From contig CP084166.1 of assembly GCA_021513695.1 (NCBI GenBank), positions 1,824,001 through 1,888,000 of the forward strand: a DNA stretch of 64,000 bases, given 5' to 3'. Position 1 is the stretch's first letter; each line of letters opens with the position of its first letter. The notes beneath the pieces are model-generated. The model did not search any database, was not told where the DNA came from, and saw only the letters and a list, made by a program, of their open reading frames with translations. The stretch is from Candidatus Heimdallarchaeum aukensis. GTDB lineage: Archaea; Asgardarchaeota; Heimdallarchaeia; Heimdallarchaeales; Heimdallarchaeaceae. The position numbers and the translations under genes are program-made. This document shows, piece by piece, positions 7,942-44,322 of this stretch.

Positions 7942-8769
7942 ATGTCAATCTTAGATTGGATAGACAAACTTCCACCACTAATTGATGATAATGGACTGAA
8001 ATTATTAATTTATCTCATCATTATTTTTTCAATAATTACAGCAATAATAGTTCACTTTTCAACTAGAGGAGAATATTATTCATCAAGAGGACTAACATTA
8101 AAAGAACTTGATTTTGATATTAGTCGTCCCATTTCTGATATAGCACCGGAAGAAAGAATAGAAATACTAAAAATTGAAAAGGAGAAGTTTATAGCGGCTA
8201 GAAAAGCTTTAACAGACTCTTACAAACGCAAAAAGTTGAGTGACACTATTTTTGAAAGACTATCTGTGAGATATGCATCAGATCTCAAAAAAATAGAAGA
8301 CGAAATTGAGAGAACAGAAAAAGAAGCAGAAGTTAGCCAGTTAGAAGAAGAATTAAAGAAAATGCAAGGAGATTATTTGGCAAAAATTGCAGGAGAAACA
8401 AAGGTTGAAACAACACCCTCTACTGCACCGACAACGCCACCACCTTCTGCACCAACTGCACCGACACCGACTCCAACTACACCGCCAAAAACAGTAACTC
8501 CACCAACACCAACTCCAGTAACACCACCAAAAACAGTAACTCCACCAACACCAACTGCACCAAGCACATCTGCTTCAATACCAACACCAACAAAACCACC
8601 AACGCCTATGACACAAACGACTCCTCAGGCACCTGTAGAAACAAGTCCAACGACAGATAGTGATCAAGGAGATTTATTTGCAAAGAGTACATCTATTGCT
8701 GCTTTAAGAAAAGAAATGCTTAAAGAACTAGATCGTTTGAAAGCATTTATGTCTGAACAAAATAAATGA
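7942..8769 (+). CDS. Membrane-anchored coiled-coil protein with Pro/Thr-rich low-complexity linker
   Basis: The ORF track starts at TTG 7909; ATG 7942 ([10 protein letters not shown]) is more likely. It has one TM helix, a coiled coil, a ([13 protein letters not shown])x2 linker and a conserved-looking C-terminal helix. Confidence 0.4.
8478..8573. repeat. Two tandem copies of a 48-bp unit encoding the [14 protein letters not shown] linker
   Basis: acaccgccaaaaacagtaactccaccaacaccaactccagta and acaccaccaaaaacagtaactccaccaacaccaactgcacca read directly from the sequence. Confidence 0.6.
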
Positions 8770-9566: not shown

Positions 9567-11450
9567 TTACCTAACTAGAGCTGAGATAACAGCTCCTCGT
9601 TCATAAGCTTCTTTAAATAGTGCCCCCAGTTCCGAATTGCTATTAAGCTTAATTTCTGCTGTTTTTCCTACAGTTAAAGTTACAATGACTTCACCATTAA
9701 TCATTATATCAACGTCCTTACCGATACATAAATCTGGAAATACTAAGAAAATATTGTTTTTACTTTGATACACATTGAGTACATACTCCGCTTCTTCATC
9801 AAAACTGTTTTTTTGCTCAACATCACTCCATTCAGACATTTCTGAATAAGAACGCACGTCAACATTTAGATTTAATGCAGATTCTATTTTTTCTATTGTT
9901 TTTCCAGACTTTCCGATTATCTTTGCCCTGTCAGAATCACGCACGAAAAGTGTTATAGAATCAGGTTCGGTTATTTTATATTCAAAATCATACACGCCAC
10001 TATATTGTTTGAGTATTCTTTTTATTTTTTTTCGACTAATATCAATATGTTCGGTTATTGAATGGGTTTGTTTCACAGGGGTTACTATGATTTGTTCACC
10101 AAATGTGTATAACTCATATTCTAGTTTATGAGAATGAAAATCTTTTACCTCAACAACAGGTCTACTCAAATCTCTCTCTTTTAATCCTGATGGAAGTTTT
10201 ACTTTTATTGAAAGTGTATATACCTTCCTTATTTCTCCATCTTCAATAAAAATTAGTGTGTCAATAATACTTGGAATCACTCCCAAGTCTACTCTTTTAA
10301 TGAATCTTTTTACTCCGTCTATTGCAGTAGTACCATGAATAACACCAATAAGGCCAATACCAGCTAATCGTAGATCTGCATATGTTTCGAAGTCAATATT
10401 TTTCCTTAATTCATCATATACAGTATGATCTGGTCTCATAAGTAGAATGAGGTCTGCTGTAGAAGAAATATCACCTTTAAATCCACTTAACTGTGTGATG
10501 CGATCATCAACTTGTAGGTCTCGAGGGTTTTCAAAAGTTTTCACGATTTTTCCTTTATCTGCATAAAATTCTGCTAAGGCTGTTGCAAAAGTGCTTTTTC
10601 CTGCTCCAGGAGCTCCAACAATTAGAATCCCCTCACTTTTTGTCTCAATCCTTTTCAATAATTTTTTATCAAGCTTATAATCCTCAATCTTTCTTTTTAA
10701 TATCGGTCTAACTGCAGTTATCTCCATAGCATCACTAAAAGGTGGTCGGGTAATGATTATGCGCATGTTTTTCAATTGTACAACAGAAAAACCTTGCATG
10801 TCACTTTCAATAAATGACTCTGGATCTCTAGTAGCTCTTTCTACTATTTCCTTCGCTAGTTCCTCAATTTCTTCTTTTTCTAAGAAAGAATCCCCAATAG
10901 GTTGAAGATGAAAATTTCCTGGTGTACCTATTTTTGCGAGAGGCAAATTTCTTTCTCTCAAATGAACTGACATAGTTTGTTCAGTAAAATAATCATCAAT
11001 TCGTTTTCTTGGTTTTTCAGTTGTTTCTTTTAGAAAAACTACAGCTAGCCCTTCGATTTCAGCTATATGTGCTTGAACTTTATCAGCTGTTACTAAAATA
11101 GCTGAATGCTCATAAGCTAATTCCCTAATTTGAGCATCTAGTTCTCCAGATGATGCAAATTTGATTTGGTTTGGTGTTGGACGTGTGCCATCAATTATTA
11201 TTTCGATCATTTGTTCGGATGCAAAATCCTTTAAGGCAATCAATTCCTCCAAGGCTGCAACTCCAGTTGTCCTAGCTTGATTAGCTTGATGTTCTATTTC
11301 AGCGAGAACCACACGTGATAGTACAATTCTGTTGATTGTTTGTTTTTTCTTCTTTAAGTACTTTAAAAATTCTCCATTAACGATTACACTTGTGTCTGGA
11401 ACAAATGAAACATTATTATCTACATCAGACAGGTAATTCATTTTCATCAT
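9567..11450 (-). CDS. PIN-domain / PhoH-like P-loop ATPase / KH-domain protein (COG1855-type)
   Basis: N-terminal PIN (VPDTSVIVNG...AEIE...TADK), Walker A GAPGAGKST, C-terminal KH (IIGKSGKTIEKIE). Confidence 0.75.
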   Translation of the reverse strand: MMKMNYLSDVDNNVSFVPDTSVIVNGEFLKYLKKKKQTINRIVLSRVVLAEIEHQANQARTTGVAALEELIALKDFASEQMIEIIIDGTRPTPNQIKFASSGELDAQIRELAYEHSAILVTADKVQAHIAEIEGLAVVFLKETTEKPRKRIDDYFTEQTMSVHLRERNLPLAKIGTPGNFHLQPIGDSFLEKEEIEELAKEIVERATRDPESFIESDMQGFSVVQLKNMRIIITRPPFSDAMEITAVRPILKRKIEDYKLDKKLLKRIETKSEGILIVGAPGAGKSTFATALAEFYADKGKIVKTFENPRDLQVDDRITQLSGFKGDISSTADLILLMRPDHTVYDELRKNIDFETYADLRLAGIGLIGVIHGTTAIDGVKRFIKRVDLGVIPSIIDTLIFIEDGEIRKVYTLSIKVKLPSGLKERDLSRPVVEVKDFHSHKLEYELYTFGEQIIVTPVKQTHSITEHIDISRKKIKRILKQYSGVYDFEYKITEPDSITLFVRDSDRAKIIGKSGKTIEKIESALNLNVDVRSYSEMSEWSDVEQKNSFDEEAEYVLNVYQSKNNIFLVFPDLCIGKDVDIMINGEVIVTLTVGKTAEIKLNSNSELGALFKEAYERGAVISALVR

Positions 11451-12003
11451 TCTCCTTTTCTTTATTAATAGTGGGAAAATCTAACGATTTTACTGAATAA
11501 TAGTTTACATCGCCTAAACTATCAATCACTGCAAAAATTAACTTTAATCCCATATAATCTGCTTTAGATACTATTTTCTCGATTTGGTCAATATTAAACA
11601 TTACTCCTTCAACAAAAGGAACAATTAAAGCATATTTAGTTTCTTTTTTCTTATTAGGAGAAGCTCCCCTTTCGTATAATGTAAAAAAGCTAAGTGATTG
11701 TTCATATTTTTTCACCACATAACCCCTCCCTCTTAAATCTTTAAACAATAAATAATAAACCAAGAAACTTGGAAATAATTTTGAGAAATAAGAAATTAAT
11801 TCTGATAGGGACAACTCTTTTTCTTCTTCATCAACAACAATTATTCGTTTTCTTTCCATCAATAAGACAGCTTCATAAGGTTCTAAAATAAGAGTGCCAT
11901 TATCCGATAATTCACCGTACCATCCTGTACTGTAGAGATCATTAGCTATTCTCGTATCATAAACCACTACTTGATTTCCAACTATTTTAGCATTGAAAGA
12001 CAT
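11425..12003 (-). CDS. endA: tRNA-splicing endonuclease EndA
   Basis: LFKDLRGRGYVVK matches the conserved YKDLRxRGY region. About 190 aa catalytic subunit. It overlaps the downstream gene by 26 bp. Confidence 0.7.
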   Translation of the reverse strand: MSFNAKIVGNQVVVYDTRIANDLYSTGWYGELSDNGTLILEPYEAVLLMERKRIIVVDEEEKELSLSELISYFSKLFPSFLVYYLLFKDLRGRGYVVKKYEQSLSFFTLYERGASPNKKKETKYALIVPFVEGVMFNIDQIEKIVSKADYMGLKLIFAVIDSLGDVNYYSVKSLDFPTINKEKENDENELPV

Positions 12004-34015: not shown

Positions 34016-34287
34016 GGTTTTCCATGATATACTTTTTTACGTAAAGTTTTTCGCACTCTGTCTTACAAGAGAGAAAACTAACTGAAGGGGTTTAATCTCT
34101 TGAAATCAACCCAAGCATACAATACTATAAAGAGGGTTGAGACAGACATCATACACGAATCGTGGGAATCATAAAGAAGAAAAGAACTAAAAACTCTTTT
34201 CTTCACTCCACGAGAGACAAAAAAGAAAGAATGAAGAAACTAACTCTAACACAAAAGGAGAGAATTAGTCCTTTCTTTTTTTGTCTA

Positions 34288-35742
34288 CTAGAACTGCAAC
34301 CAATGGCTGAGTCCTCGGCAAACAGTGAAATGAGTAGAACTGTATTTTTGACCAGTGAGGTAATCAGTAATAGTGTTTCCTCGGGGACGGAAAAGCGTCC
34401 CAAGGAACTTCCGAGCGATATTCATTGCTCCTGTGAGGTCAGAGTGGAAAGTATAACCGCAAGAGGAGCAATGTACTAACCCTCTAACGGGACGGACAAC
34501 TTTCCTTCCACAACGAGCACAGTAAGAAGATGTCCCTTTTTCTCCTATTATTAATATACGGTGAGGTTCAAAACCTCGGAGTATCAATGCTCGACGGAGA
34601 AGAGCAAGAACAAGGTAAAAATTCCACTGGTGAAGTTTTCTACGAAACTTACGAGTACTTTTACCTTTCCCTTTTTCTTTCTCCTCTCGAATGTGTTTAG
34701 GGTAACCTACAACAACGAAAAGGTCATACTTTCGAGCATAGGTCTCTATCGTCTGGACGATGTCGCTTATAAATTGGTGAGTATAAGCTCGTTTAACGTT
34801 TCTATATCTTCTTCGAAGAAGACCGAGAAAACGATAGATTTGATGTTTCTTACCCGACTGGTCGTTTAGAGCCGCTTTCCTCTGAAGACGGGAAAGTTTG
34901 AGTTTATATCGATGATTAACTCTATTCCACTGTTTGGTATGCCATAATTTTATCTCTTTACTTGTTAATTTCTTTTTAGGCGTCAGTAACACTCCTGCAG
35001 CAGGAATGTTTATCCCTATATCTATTCCCAGCACAGCTGGAGGAAGAGAAGAAGAATTTTCTTCTTCAGGAGGATAAAAAGAGGAAGAAAGAACTTTTAA
35101 TTGGAAATATACCCACCACTCACGTGTAGAACGTTTATATCTTAACTCTAGACTTTTTATTCTTCCTTTCTTTAACTCTTTCTGGTGGAAAGTGCTCATC
35201 TCTAAAGGTAACCACAATCTCTGGTGGTAAGGTGTTCCTCTTCTCCATGTATCTAACGAGTCTCTTACCCCCACCCACCAACGAGTGAGAGTATTATCCT
35301 TCTCTTTAGGTAGATGAACTAGAATGAACCTCTTTTTGTTAATTAATTGTCTTCTTGCTCTCTTTATCGGAGGACGAGTAGGACTGGGTCTATACCCTTG
35401 TTCGTATAGTTGCACAGCTATATCTCTACACTCTTGAAACTCATCGTGAGAACAATAAGGGAACATTTTCTTGAAATCGTGAGGAACAGTTTCTCTCCTT
35501 TCCTCTTCTTTAACTTTTGAAGTCGTTAGCGTCAGTTCATCTAGTTTTCCTTTATGTACCCTTATTTCCCCTTTTTTTGTTCTTCTACATACCTTTCTTC
35601 TGTTGTGATGTATTATTCTCACATACTTCTCTATTATTCTTGTGTCTCTTCCTGTTATTCTCCTTAACCTTTCCTTTTTCCTTGTCGTCAATACCTTATT
35701 CTTTACTCTCACTTTCAAGGTTTTGACGACGTCCTCCATCAT
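34288..35742 (-). CDS. tnpB: TnpB (IS200/IS605-family IS1341-type OrfB; OMEGA RNA-guided nuclease family)
   Basis: RuvC-I GIDIGINIPAAG, C4 zinc finger CARCGRK...CSSCGY, RuvC-III HSDLTGAMNIARK. 484 aa, very Arg/Lys-rich. GC-richer than its surroundings. Confidence 0.8.
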   Translation of the reverse strand: MMEDVVKTLKVRVKNKVLTTRKKERLRRITGRDTRIIEKYVRIIHHNRRKVCRRTKKGEIRVHKGKLDELTLTTSKVKEEERRETVPHDFKKMFPYCSHDEFQECRDIAVQLYEQGYRPSPTRPPIKRARRQLINKKRFILVHLPKEKDNTLTRWWVGVRDSLDTWRRGTPYHQRLWLPLEMSTFHQKELKKGRIKSLELRYKRSTREWWVYFQLKVLSSSFYPPEEENSSSLPPAVLGIDIGINIPAAGVLLTPKKKLTSKEIKLWHTKQWNRVNHRYKLKLSRLQRKAALNDQSGKKHQIYRFLGLLRRRYRNVKRAYTHQFISDIVQTIETYARKYDLFVVVGYPKHIREEKEKGKGKSTRKFRRKLHQWNFYLVLALLRRALILRGFEPHRILIIGEKGTSSYCARCGRKVVRPVRGLVHCSSCGYTFHSDLTGAMNIARKFLGTLFRPRGNTITDYLTGQKYSSTHFTVCRGLSHWLQF

Positions 35743-35918
35743 TCTTTTTTCCTTCCTTTCCTTTGTTTTCTTTTTTTTCTTCTCCTCTTTTTTCTTCTAT
35801 TTTTTTCACTATAAAAACCCCTCTCCTTCCTCTCCGCTCTTCTCTTTTTTCCTCACTTTGCCGCCAACAACTGTAAATTAAGTAAAAAAATAGACGCATG
35901 GTTGTTTTTTTCTATAAA

Positions 35919-36022
35919 TGGTGAGGGGAGGGCGATTCGAACGCCCGAACCACTAAGGAACGGATGGCCCATCTTCTTTAAGATCTTGAGTCCGTCGCCG
36001 TTGACCTCTTGGCTATCCCCCC
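35919..36022 (-). tRNA. tRNA-Leu (anticodon CAA) with a 19-nt canonical (37/38) intron; CCA encoded
   Basis: Folded by hand: acceptor GGGGGGA/UCCCCUC, D stem GCC/GGC with an 11-nt loop (type II), anticodon stem ACGGA/UCCGU, loop CUCAAG[intron AUCUUAAAGAAGAUGGGCC]A, 14-nt variable arm, T arm GGGCG-UUCGAAU-CGCCC, discriminator A73. Confidence 0.6.
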
Positions 36023-38256: not shown

Positions 38257-38363
38257 TGGTGGACTGGGCGAGAATTTCGGTCTAGACACCCACAGCGCCA
38301 TATCTCTCGAACTCGCGGCCTCTTCACTGCGAATGAAGCGTTCTTCCTCTGAACTACCAGCCC
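38257..38363 (-). tRNA. tRNA-Ala (anticodon CGC) with an apparent 32-nt intron at a non-canonical T-loop position; CCA encoded
   Basis: Hand fold: acceptor GGGCUGG/CCAGUCC with G3:U70, A73, D stem GUUC/GAAC, anticodon stem CUUCA/UGAAG, loop UUCGCAG, variable AGGCC, T stem GCGAG/CUCGC enclosing 39 nt (a 7-nt loop plus a 32-nt insert). 107 nt in total. Confidence 0.6.
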
Positions 38364-40667: not shown

Positions 40668-40763
40668 TGGAGCCAGGACGGGGATTTGAACCCCGGAGGC
40701 ATAAGCCAGCGGTTATCTCTCTGATGTTTCGAGACCGCCTCCGTACCACTAGGATATCCTGGC
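40668..40763 (-). tRNA. Type-II tRNA, anticodon CGA (Ser-like), with a short 13-nt intron in the anticodon loop; discriminator U73 followed by CCA
   Basis: Hand fold: acceptor GCCAGGA/UCCUGGC, anticodon stem GCGGU/ACCGC enclosing 20 nt, variable arm UGGCUUAUGCCUC (GGC/GCC stem), T arm CGGGG-UUCAAAU-CCCCG. Confidence 0.5.
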
Positions 40764-42411: not shown

Positions 42412-44322
42412 TTATTTTTTAGAGAATAGGAAGGTTACAGCTCCGATTACGGACATAAGTATTAACCCACCACCAACCCAGACCCAAACAGGGATTGGAG
42501 GTTTGTATTCTATATTATTTTGGACTCTATTTCCACTAAAATTAGAAGTTTCGGCATCAAATGAAAGTGAATATAACCCCCCTTTCACTCCTTTCAATAG
42601 AATTTCACCGCCCCATCCAGCATATTTCTCTTCATTGAAAGTAAGATTATAGTAGTATGTTCCTTTCTCCCCACTCAATGTTACTGTTACAAAATCAGCT
42701 CCATTAGCATCATTAATCTCAGTTTGATTATAAAATATAATATCTAAGTCACTTATAAGAAGCGTTCTTCCGTCAAATGAAATTATTGGTTTATCCAATC
42801 TTAATTTGAAATGTTCTAAGGTTTCAACTAACACACTAGCTTGAGGACCCAAACCAAATGGATCACCATAAACAGTTGGATAATCCTCGTCAACATAAGC
42901 CAAGCAGAACAATATTTTCCTTACTTCTTTTTCTGGTTCAACATAAAATTGTTCTTTTGTTGTCTCATAAATTTCATAATCAATTAGTGTGTCATCTTTA
43001 GAAAAATACAAAGTTACAATGCCTAATCTTTTTTTATCTTTATTATTTATTCTAACATCCATAAACCGGTTAAGCAGATTTATTTCAAATGTGTAAAAAC
43101 CATAATATGGTACATCTATTGTAGAGGATATCTCTGTATAAGTTATTGTTACTGGTTCGATAGTGAATGTAATATCTGTAAATCCAAATGTTCCATTAGC
43201 AAGGTCGGGTCTATCTATTAATAAAGCTACATGCCAGTTGTAGAAAAAGTCGTTAAATGTTTCGCCTTTATCTTTTAATTCATCATTTATGGATTCTTGG
43301 ACAGGTCTAGTGTCATTAACAAATTTTCTGATTATATCAGGACCAAATTGCTCGTAAACATAAAAAACAAAAAGATAGGCTCCACCATAATCAATTCGTA
43401 CATCACGGTTTCCCTCAGAATAATAATTCCAATAAATTAAAGAATCATCTGAATGTTCTTTAAAGTAATTTTCACTCCAATAAGAAACTCCTTCATAACC
43501 ACCAGGCATTCTTCCAGTTATATACTCTGAAAATACTGCACATCCTTCATCGAACCAGCGCATTTCATCCTGATCATGGTTGTAATGAATTAAGTGTTGA
43601 AACTCATGTGCCAAGGTATCAGTGTAATCTGCGATACCACCAATAAATATCATTTCCCATTCATTAGATTTCAAATAGGAGTATCCTTGTGCATCTAGTT
43701 CCTCTTGTGTATGCTCATTAATTCCCCAGAAATACCCAGCATAATTTGAGGGAAGGTAAGTATGAAGAATGATTAATCTTCCATCACCTATGTTCCCCAA
43801 ATTACCCTCCATATCTCCAAAAAAATCATATTCTATAGGGTAGATTTTACTTTCGAATATACTTTTTTCGCTTGTTATTAGATTATTTACAGCATTTACC
43901 CCATATTCATTAATCATATCAATTTCTACAAAATAGTATGCATGCTCTGAAATGGCAACAACTTTGGCTTCTGCAATTCTAAAACTAATTGTATTTCCGC
44001 CTTCTTCTACGTAAAAACTTTTAGTATCTCCTACATTGAAAGATAGACTATAACTCGTAGTCTTTTTTACTTCTGAACGTGATATATGCTTAGTATTTTC
44101 AATGATTTCTTTTGGAACACTATGAGTAAGCACAATTTCATTTTGAGGAGAATCTTGAAAATAGTTTACTGTTTCAGCTTTAATTTTTGTATTCATTTCT
44201 TTTTCTGTATTAGAAGTATAACTAGAATCCGCAAACAACGAATTTGGTATAAAAAATTGTGATAGAATAATAATAACAAATATTTTAGTCAATAGTTTAT
44301 ATTTTTTAAAAACAGATGTCAT
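42412..44322 (-). CDS. Secreted/surface zinc metalloprotease (HExxH...E gluzincin-like) with C-terminal TM anchor
   Basis: N-terminal signal peptide, TLAHEFQHLIHYNHDQDEMRWFDEG (HExxH plus a downstream Glu), C-terminal hydrophobic anchor VWVWVGGGLILMSVIGAVTFLFSKK. Confidence 0.5.
   Translation of the reverse strand: MTSVFKKYKLLTKIFVIIILSQFFIPNSLFADSSYTSNTEKEMNTKIKAETVNYFQDSPQNEIVLTHSVPKEIIENTKHISRSEVKKTTSYSLSFNVGDTKSFYVEEGGNTISFRIAEAKVVAISEHAYYFVEIDMINEYGVNAVNNLITSEKSIFESKIYPIEYDFFGDMEGNLGNIGDGRLIILHTYLPSNYAGYFWGINEHTQEELDAQGYSYLKSNEWEMIFIGGIADYTDTLAHEFQHLIHYNHDQDEMRWFDEGCAVFSEYITGRMPGGYEGVSYWSENYFKEHSDDSLIYWNYYSEGNRDVRIDYGGAYLFVFYVYEQFGPDIIRKFVNDTRPVQESINDELKDKGETFNDFFYNWHVALLIDRPDLANGTFGFTDITFTIEPVTITYTEISSTIDVPYYGFYTFEINLLNRFMDVRINNKDKKRLGIVTLYFSKDDTLIDYEIYETTKEQFYVEPEKEVRKILFCLAYVDEDYPTVYGDPFGLGPQASVLVETLEHFKLRLDKPIISFDGRTLLISDLDIIFYNQTEINDANGADFVTVTLSGEKGTYYYNLTFNEEKYAGWGGEILLKGVKGGLYSLSFDAETSNFSGNRVQNNIEYKPPIPVWVWVGGGLILMSVIGAVTFLFSKK

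Follow-up and report, generated by a model that had tools for sequence, protein, structure and literature searches.

A tRNA-Ala(CGC) gene of Candidatus Heimdallarchaeum aukensis with a predicted 32-nt bulge-helix-bulge intron at position 59/60 of its T loop

Can a tRNA gene whose T stem closes 39 nt instead of 7 still encode a working tRNA, and by what route would the surplus be removed? The question is raised by a 107-nt gene of the Asgard archaeon Candidatus Heimdallarchaeum aukensis (assembly GCA_021513695.1), located on the minus strand at positions 38257..38363 of a 64,000-nt stretch of contig CP084166.1 (1,824,001 to 1,888,000), which is referred to here as the window. An original prediction, made from the letters of the window, had described it as a tRNA-Ala(CGC) with a 32-nt intron in the T arm. 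The tRNA-Ala(CGC) feature at these coordinates is real and confirmed. Judged by its sequence and by those of its relatives, the locus is very probably a functional, spliced tRNA-Ala(CGC) gene carrying a 32-nt intron of the bulge-helix-bulge (BHB) type between tRNA positions 59 and 60.

The gene is complete, with its 5' end at 38363 and an encoded CCA at 38259-38257; the predicted coordinates are correct, and the strand is minus. Read 5' to 3', the precursor consists of GGGCUGG-UA-GUUC-AGAGGAA-GAAC-G-CUUCA-UUCGCAG-UGAAG-AGGCC-GCGAG, the 39 enclosed nucleotides, and CUCGC-CCAGUCC-A-CCA. Every arm of the cloverleaf that had been folded by hand is present in the sequence: the acceptor stem GGGCUGG/CCAGUCC with G3:U70 and A73, the D arm GUUC/GAAC, the perfect anticodon stem CUUCA/UGAAG with the loop UUCGCAG and the anticodon CGC (38329..38331, minus), the variable loop AGGCC, and the 5-bp T stem GCGAG/CUCGC around 39 nt (5' strand 38312..38316, 3' strand 38268..38272, both minus). 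G53:C61, U54/A58, G18G19 and G15:C48 were found by sequence inspection. Once the insert is taken out, the acceptor, D, anticodon and T stems have the 7, 4, 5 and 5 bp of a cloverleaf. The minimum free energy (MFE) fold of the 107-nt precursor, calculated with ViennaRNA, recovers the acceptor, D and T stems.

Standard tools do not report the gene as it stands. ARAGORN makes no call on the unspliced sequence in default, intron or relaxed modes, and neither does Rfam at its gathering score; under a permissive E-value setting, the Rfam tRNA model matches the 5' part only, with 25.7 bits where the gathering score is 29. An in-silico deletion of 32 nt restores a normal T loop, as had been proposed, and ARAGORN then calls a tRNA-Ala(cgc) with scores of 119.0-120.5, of which 120.5 is its highest. 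The segment is also an island of 55-60% GC in a window of 32.9% GC. The gene is thus more than a chance resemblance, because this island, the ARAGORN score after splicing, a covariance model (CM) match and the identity of the exons in a sister species, both described below, point the same way. A T-run is present downstream, 3' of the gene. Upstream, a TATA-like TTTATT (-27 to -22) lacks conservation in Candidatus H. endolithica and was given no weight. The relaxed-threshold ARAGORN 'tRNA-Ala(cgc)' at 43582-43665 was rejected as a false positive (34.5% GC).

Under the best-supported assignment, which is drawn from sequence comparison, the intron AGAUAUGGCGCUGUGGGUGUCUAGACCGAAAU would occupy 38274..38305 (minus). 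The 5' exon (38306..38363, minus; tRNA positions 1-59) would then contain the acceptor 5' strand, the D arm, the anticodon arm, the variable loop, the T-stem 5' strand and T-loop nucleotides 54-59 (UUCGAG). The 3' exon (38257..38273, minus) would supply T-loop nucleotide 60 (U), the T-stem strand CUCGC, the acceptor strand CCAGUCC, A73 and CCA, and the T loop after splicing would read UUCGAGU.

The sister species Candidatus H. endolithica (L012) carries a tRNA-Ala(CGC) at the syntenic site, between the genes for eIF5A and an HD-domain protein. The exons of the two species are identical at 75/75 positions (58/58 in the 5' exon and 17/17 in the 3' exon). Its insert of 33 nt differs from the window intron by eight substitutions and one indel, and the upstream spacer is only ~65-70% identical. 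Within the intron lies a hairpin, GGCGCU-GUG-GGUGUC (38285..38299, minus), which occurs in every low-energy fold; three substitutions in its stem in H. endolithica (GGCGUU/GGCGCC) all keep the pairing. Conserved exons beside a drifting insert and spacer fit purifying selection on a working tRNA body, as far as sequence divergence can tell, and not a decaying pseudogene.

A pseudogene inactivated by the 32-nt insertion deserves consideration, as a tRNA-Ala(CGC) is in principle dispensable and its GCG codons could be read by tRNA-Ala(UGC). Further points in its favour are the imperfect 5' half of the BHB motif, the TATA-like element that is not conserved in H. endolithica, and the failure to find a catalytic endonuclease gene in the window or, for the Heimdallarchaeum chromosomes, among the matches listed. 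Yet the exons have remained identical while the insert (~25% changed) and the spacer (~30-35% changed) drifted; at such a rate, 75 unchanged sites would be expected by chance with a probability in the order of 1e-9. The elements of identity and tertiary pairing, the encoded CCA and the downstream T-run have all been retained, and the junction helix and bulge are kept, with compensatory changes, in at least 13 independent genes. A dead gene is accordingly quite improbable.

A functional gene with an intron is further indicated by relatives that lack the insert. In 24 Heimdall-group reference genomes, the corresponding position, upstream of the HD gene, is filled by an intron-less 77-nt tRNA-Ala(CGC); its T arm reads CCGGG-UUCAAAU-CCCGG, and ARAGORN calls it readily. 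The D loops of these orthologues are 2 nt longer than that of the window gene. Two closer relatives, L173 and L175, whose HD proteins are 83% and 77% identical to that of the window, also have an intron-less tRNA-Ala(CGC) beside the HD gene. L021, L030 and L034 contain inserts of 30-31 nt at the same place in the T loop, and L020 has the T stem of L021 and L030 yet no insert. Presence and absence of the insert are thus polymorphic at one orthologous locus, as read from aligned sequences. Constrained exons, a freely changing insert and the existence of intron-less orthologues together make up the pattern of an intron. In four JGI metagenomes (3300033148/49/50/56) and two Logan runs, the two flanking proteins are unchanged and the tRNA locus is identical; these contigs represent the same population and carry no comparative signal.

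Three side observations concern this locus. The T arm of Heimdallarchaeum (GCGAG/UUCGAGU) differs from that of L173 (1237-1313) and L175 (1260-1331), both CCGGG/UUCAAAU, in three stem pairs and two loop positions; to judge from these sequences, the T arm may have been remodelled alongside the gain of the intron, letting UUCG pair with CGAA. The encoded 3' CCA is found here and in all Heimdall-group reference-genome orthologues (L012, L013-L052, L173), and is absent from most metagenomic tRNA-Ala(CGC) relatives of other lineages. The Logan assemblies of SRR15988954/58 break within the first 28 nt of the gene, window 38336-38363, where L004/L005 end and L010/L011 start. This suggests that the genome holds a further gene with that 28-nt 5' segment, probably one for a tRNA-Ala isoacceptor.

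Where the surplus lies was determined by two approaches based on the intron-less orthologues. A MAFFT alignment to them, given no BHB information, has its gap between the sixth and seventh nucleotides of the T loop (UUCAAA|-|U), which corresponds to 59/60. A CM built from 16 intron-less orthologues only matches the window gene at 38266-38358 with 39 bits (E ~4e-8) and leaves the other arms intact. It assigns the surplus to the 3' part of the T loop, with 34 nt in two model positions, and does likewise in L012, L021, L030 and L034. A model fold that moved the extra nucleotides elsewhere had been named as grounds for abandoning the original prediction; the surplus stays in the 3' T loop. The proposed tRNA-Ala(CGC) with a 32-nt T-loop intron is thus backed by synteny, by the divergence of exons and intron, by covariation and by the CM.

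The same alignments bear on a mature tRNA in which the 32 nt persist, whether as an enlarged T loop or as an additional hairpin. The insert does form a stable hairpin of its own, and the substitutions between the species preserve its pairing. Its retention would, however, destroy the conserved elbow of D loop and T loop that belongs to established tRNA structure, and at this locus the orthologues possess T loops of the normal 7 nt. Inserts of 30-138 nt with unrelated interiors, constrained only at the junction, bear the signature of a spliced element, so that a retained insert is very improbable.

How a splicing endonuclease could recognise a spliced insert in the T arm can be deduced from the canonical intron at 37/38. 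There, the 5-bp anticodon stem forms the outer helix, a central helix joins loop nucleotides 32-35 to intron nucleotides -6 to -3, the 3' bulge is composed of intron nucleotides -2 and -1 and nucleotide 38, and cleavage takes place after the second nucleotide of each bulge. Moved to the T arm, this rule predicts a central helix H of positions 54-57 with intron nucleotides -6 to -3, a 3' bulge of intron nucleotides -2 and -1 and position 60, and a 5' bulge of positions 58 and 59 and intron nucleotide +1. The window sequence matches in each respect, with UUCG (38308..38311, minus) opposite CGAA (38276..38279, minus), A-U-U60 (38273..38275, minus) abutting CUCGC, and A58-G59-A(+1) (38305..38307, minus). 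Of 48 registers of bulge length and offset within the 39-nt loop, only UUCG/CGAA, which a 3-nt bulge separates from the T stem, gives a 4/4 helix. Helix H belongs to the MFE structure, with pair probabilities of 0.85-0.92 in the ensemble. Cleavage is accordingly modelled at the 5' site between 38306 and 38305 and at the 3' site between 38274 and 38273, both predicted positions.

The strict hBHBh' motif, which requires two 3-nt bulges, a 4-bp helix and flanking helices on both sides, is not formed by this intron. Its intron-side helix h' consists of a single G:C pair followed by mismatches, and the strict conformer (-11.5 kcal/mol) lies 1.8 kcal/mol above the MFE structure (-13.3 kcal/mol). Since h' has only this one G:C pair, the 5' site is located in a loose internal loop, and the motif is of the relaxed, hBH class. 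The features of the relaxed motif (hBH / HBh' class), namely the outer helix h, which is the T stem, helix H and the 3-nt bulge, are those of the MFE structure. The BHB search near the T loop that the original prediction had proposed thus yields a half-motif, relaxed at the 5' site. The single sequence supports a BHB only modestly, and it is on the comparative evidence that the argument rests.

To place this junction in a larger family, metagenome contigs were searched with a degenerate pattern that spans this tRNA-Ala(CGC) from its 5' end through two-thirds of its length, which retrieved at least 120 stretches; together with the reference-genome loci, at least 123 matches were available. Normal 72-nt genes account for 103 of the matches listed, expanded T arms for 15, and five were not parsed, four owing to very long inserts and one cut by a contig end. 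L102, L146 and L172, with long or aberrant inserts, were left out of the register analysis. At least 13 distinct insert-bearing genes fit the 59/60 register. Helix H has 4/4 pairs in nine of these 13 and 3/4 in four, and the geometry with a 3-nt bulge recurs in all. Their inserts vary from 31 to 138 nt with unrelated interiors, the junction alone being constrained, and after predicted splicing their T loops (UUCAAAU, UCCAAAU) are the same as in intron-less relatives.

In the alignment of the junctions, 95.6% of the cells are paired, compared with 83.5% after shuffling and 34-64% after a shift of the 3' partners by one to three columns. Changes on both sides occur in three T-stem pairs and in two of the four pairs of helix H: 57:i-6 is G:C here and A:U elsewhere, and 55:i-4 is U:A, C:G or U:G. 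This covariation is supportive rather than decisive, as the sample of sequences is small and its members are related. Neighbouring proteins place some insert-bearing genes in Micrarchaeia/Micrarchaeota and one in a metagenome-assembled genome labelled Thermoplasmatales; such inserts therefore occur outside Asgard archaea as well. Much longer T-loop inserts, from 78 to more than 130 nt, are seen in L146, L102/L172, L134, L141 and L150, Micrarchaeia contigs among them. The insert of L146 (Micrarchaeota), which may lie at 56/57, misfits the 59/60 register. A Rad50-like gene adjoins L096, L119, L131 and L067.

A real intron at a neighbouring T-loop position, namely 56/57, 57/58 or 58/59, has to be weighed against 59/60. 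Short repeats at both junctions (GA..GA and runs of A) allow several 32-nt deletions that give a 7-nt loop, and for the window gene two positions of the CM stay ambiguous. In addition, the metagenomes yield at least one tRNA-Ala(CGC), L146, whose T-loop insert falls outside the 59/60 register. By ARAGORN, the joins UUCGAGU and UUCGAUU reach 120.5, and UUCAAUU 119.0. The last of these is the example given in the original prediction (UUC|AAUU, 56/57), which has the lower score and no helix and bulge behind it. No alternative 4-bp helix with a bulge exists in the loop, and the T stem can serve as outer helix beside a 3-nt bulge only at 59/60. In the family, the gap falls after nucleotide 59 relative to the intron-less counterparts, whose UUCAAAU loops are matched exactly. 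An adjacent position is thus unlikely. The 59/60 junction is preferred because the sole 4-bp helix with a bulge, the geometry throughout the family and the alignment to intron-less orthologues agree. The assignment rests on the BHB rule and the other family members; the window sequence by itself is compatible with adjacent junctions as well.

Several findings weigh against a spliced intron at 59/60. When a single loop is shuffled, a helix H in the exact register arises by chance ~5% of the time. No clean 3-nt bulge surrounds the 5' splice site, with h' reduced to its one G:C pair and the MFE structure favouring a 1-nt bulge. Excisions at 57/58, 58/59 and 59/60 score equally well in ARAGORN owing to the junction repeats. 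In H. endolithica, helix H contains a G.G mismatch with a pair probability of ~0.01 and is not predicted thermodynamically; h' has three pairs there, so the weak element differs from that of the window gene. Finally, the sole EndA-family gene in the window lacks catalytic residues, and a catalytic paralogue was not found among the matches listed.

This EndA-family gene, an open reading frame (ORF) of 192 aa at 11425..12003 (minus), had been cited as the endA that would supply the splicing endonuclease. Its membership of the family holds: both Pfam domains are present (tRNA_int_endo_N, PF02778, E = 1e-13; tRNA_int_endo, PF01974, E = 1.9e-8), and the protein aligns over its full length with M. 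jannaschii EndA (1a79). It is not citable as a catalytic endonuclease, as the Tyr-His-Lys triad is incomplete. Tyr110 is present, but the 192 aa include no histidine; the column of His125(Mj) is occupied by Thr or Lys, depending on the alignment, and that of Lys156(Mj) by Leu. The L1/CSL-type loop insert, which is associated with broad substrate specificity in TACK/Asgard alpha subunits, is absent from this protein and its Asgard relatives; in their alignment, only P0210, a crenarchaeal alpha subunit, has the N-terminal insert. Several other Asgard EndA homologues also lack the His, some of them with weak Pfam matches to Sen15, and the family profile of the window protein weakly matches Sen54. 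Sen54 is a structural subunit of the eukaryotic enzyme. Syntenic orthologues of the AB_125 clade (e.g., P0160 in L177/L178), whose orthology is shown by the common TYW2-EndA-PIN/ATPase arrangement, keep a Tyr...His...Lys-like pattern with His(+1).

A second EndA-family gene was found neither in the window, by comparing hidden Markov models with all six-frame ORFs, nor, for the two closed Heimdallarchaeum chromosomes, among the matches listed by a word-based homology search. The need for an active splicing enzyme is not in doubt, because inserts interrupt three of the four tRNA genes found in the window, within ~5 kb. Judged by its sequence, the window protein is probably a structural subunit of a heteromeric endonuclease whose catalytic subunit is encoded outside the window. 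By analogy with other Asgard archaea, the most economical reading would make it the structural subunit of an (alpha-beta)2 enzyme, with an L1-bearing alpha elsewhere.

The maturation of the tRNA may then be envisaged as follows, in an account where we infer transcription, the exact nucleotides of cleavage, ligation and which enzyme is at work. The gene would be transcribed as the 107-nt precursor. In it, the T stem GCGAG/CUCGC would be lengthened by the 4-bp helix of T-loop nucleotides 54-57 (UUCG) with intron nucleotides -6 to -3 (CGAA), leaving A-U-U60 as the 3' bulge and A58-G59-A(+1) as a 5' bulge or internal loop. This geometry would be that of the canonical 37/38 intron, moved onto the T arm, which shares the 5-bp stem and 7-nt loop of the anticodon arm. 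An archaeal splicing endonuclease would cut after the second nucleotide of each bulge, and a ligase of the RtcB type would join the exons to a 75-nt tRNA with the T loop UUCGAGU. Given the weak intron-side helix and the relaxed motif, a broad-specificity (alpha-beta)2 endonuclease should be needed.

Position 59/60 is a published site of non-canonical tRNA introns (PMC4090602), listed in reviews along with other T-loop positions (PMC4090602, PMC6379350). Such introns were described in Crenarchaeota/Thermoproteales and Nanoarchaeota by Marck & Grosjean (2003) and Sugahara et al. (2008), as cited by Yoshihisa 2014 (PMC4090602) and Hirata 2019 (PMC6379350). The window intron shares with them its position, a BHB on a stem-loop other than that of the anticodon, a relaxed hBH motif and the expected need for an endonuclease of broad specificity, and genes of both kinds escape standard tRNA finders. 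It differs in its host, an Asgard archaeon (Heimdallarchaeia) with a genome of 33% GC, and in its presence or absence at a syntenic locus among close relatives. Relaxed motifs are handled only by endonucleases of the (alpha-beta)2 and epsilon2 types (PMC4090602, PMC6379350).

Compared with the canonical hBHBh' intron at 37/38, the same 5-bp outer stem, four loop nucleotides pairing with intron nucleotides -6 to -3, a 3-nt bulge holding the first nucleotide of the 3' exon, and an intron after the sixth loop nucleotide are found. The window intron is distinguished by its location in the T arm, by the near absence of h' and by a motif that is relaxed and not strict.

Among Asgard archaea, single non-canonical and multiple introns were reported for tRNA sets including that of Heimdallarchaeota AB_125 by Kaneta et al. 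2018 (PMC5829648), and the portion of that work consulted gives aggregate counts in which this gene and position are not described. The superphylum is the same, whereas the orthologous tRNA-Ala(CGC) of AB_125 (L013) is intron-less, unlike the window gene. According to the same study, Asgard EndA is an (alpha-beta)2 enzyme with an L1 loop, able to cut relaxed motifs; the EndA-family protein of the window differs from this description in having neither the His nor an L1-type insert. T-arm introns of nucleomorphs and of Cyanidioschyzon merolae (PMC4090602) likewise interrupt the T arm, and BHB-like determinants have been proposed for C. merolae. These introns, however, belong to eukaryotic genomes, are often much shorter, at 3-24 nt, and depend on other splicing enzyme complexes, and no descent relationship is implied. 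In the Heimdallarchaeum genome paper (PMC8813620), tRNAs were annotated by a generic pipeline, and nothing is said on tRNA introns. A limited literature search found no work on this gene or on T-loop introns in Heimdallarchaeum, which is no proof of absence. The type of intron, a rare one among archaeal tRNA introns, its position and non-canonical introns in Asgard tRNAs are already published, so the locus is no new kind of element; the modest addition is a well-resolved presence/absence polymorphism at an orthologous locus.

Several elements integrate at tRNA genes in Heimdallarchaeum genomes (PMC8813620), and a strain-specific insertion sequence (IS) with a TnpB-like gene lies directly 3' of the neighbouring tRNA-Leu. 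This raises the thought that the 32 nt are the scar of a mobile element or an integrase att site targeting the T arm. No duplicated 3' segment of the tRNA, repeats or element genes occur beside the insert, whose sequence has no further copy in the window or the compared loci; it comprises 32 nt only and is bounded by a helix and bulge competent for splicing. A scar is thus exceedingly improbable, and it was rejected as a reading of the insert, as were the pseudogene and the retained T-loop expansion. With the insert read as an intron, C/D-box motifs were sought in it, and none were found.

The IS-like segment just mentioned measures 1.86 kb (34039-35900) and contains a TnpB/Cas12f-like ORF (34288-35742, minus). 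It is missing from the JGI contig Ga0366832_1000360 (L006), which is otherwise 99.4-99.8% identical, and from H. endolithica (L012), and is therefore a strain-specific insertion. Several metagenome contigs end near it. The adjacent tRNA-Leu(CAA) (35919-36022, minus) carries an anticodon-loop insert of 19 nt by ARAGORN intron mode and 22 nt by Rfam. Beyond tRNA-Ala(CGC), tRNA-Ser(CGA) (40668-40763, minus) also has an anticodon-loop insert (13 nt by ARAGORN intron mode); it is missed by Rfam at the gathering score and labelled 'tRNA-???' by default ARAGORN. Leu-CAA, Ala-CGC and Ser-CGA are the three genes that contribute the ~5-kb cluster of inserts. The inserts in tRNA-Leu(CAA) and tRNA-Ser(CGA) are of the canonical anticodon-loop type, with BHB motifs judged by eye only. 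GC-rich islands were scanned for further missed RNAs: those at 60.6-62 kb lie inside ORFs and give no Rfam match at E <= 1. The island at 8399-8518 was rejected as an RNA gene, since 8399-8550 (plus) is a coding repeat of 62% GC for a Pro/Thr-rich low-complexity protein segment.

The insert occurs in Heimdallarchaeum and in three scattered lineages and is lacking in 26 relatives whose gene lies at this locus or next to it, a distribution that invites a wider and decidedly speculative proposal. Position 59/60 of tRNA-Ala(CGC) could be a hotspot of recurrent gain and loss of BHB introns in Heimdallarchaeia, the gain in Heimdallarchaeum coinciding with the remodelling of the T arm and the loss of the EndA His and Lys, which would point to a recent rewiring of the endonuclease. 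Within this proposal, the T-loop intron might also shield its gene from the many integrative elements of Heimdallarchaeum genomes that target tRNAs. We regard this proposal as doubtful. If it were true, it would imply a new division of catalytic and structural labour, or an undetected catalytic partner, in a lineage close to eukaryotes.

For annotation, the finding means that tRNA pipelines relying on ARAGORN or the Rfam gathering score would count tRNA-Ala(CGC) as absent from two closed Heimdallarchaeum genomes, and that curated Asgard tRNA sets need a BHB-aware search. The finding also raises the question of which protein supplies endonuclease catalysis in Heimdallarchaeum. Close relatives have this syntenic tRNA gene, some with a 59/60 intron and some without, and its junction pairs covary; the locus thereby constitutes a clean natural experiment. 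The locus is thus useful for studying the gain, loss and tolerance of protein-spliced introns in the archaeal group closest to eukaryotes.

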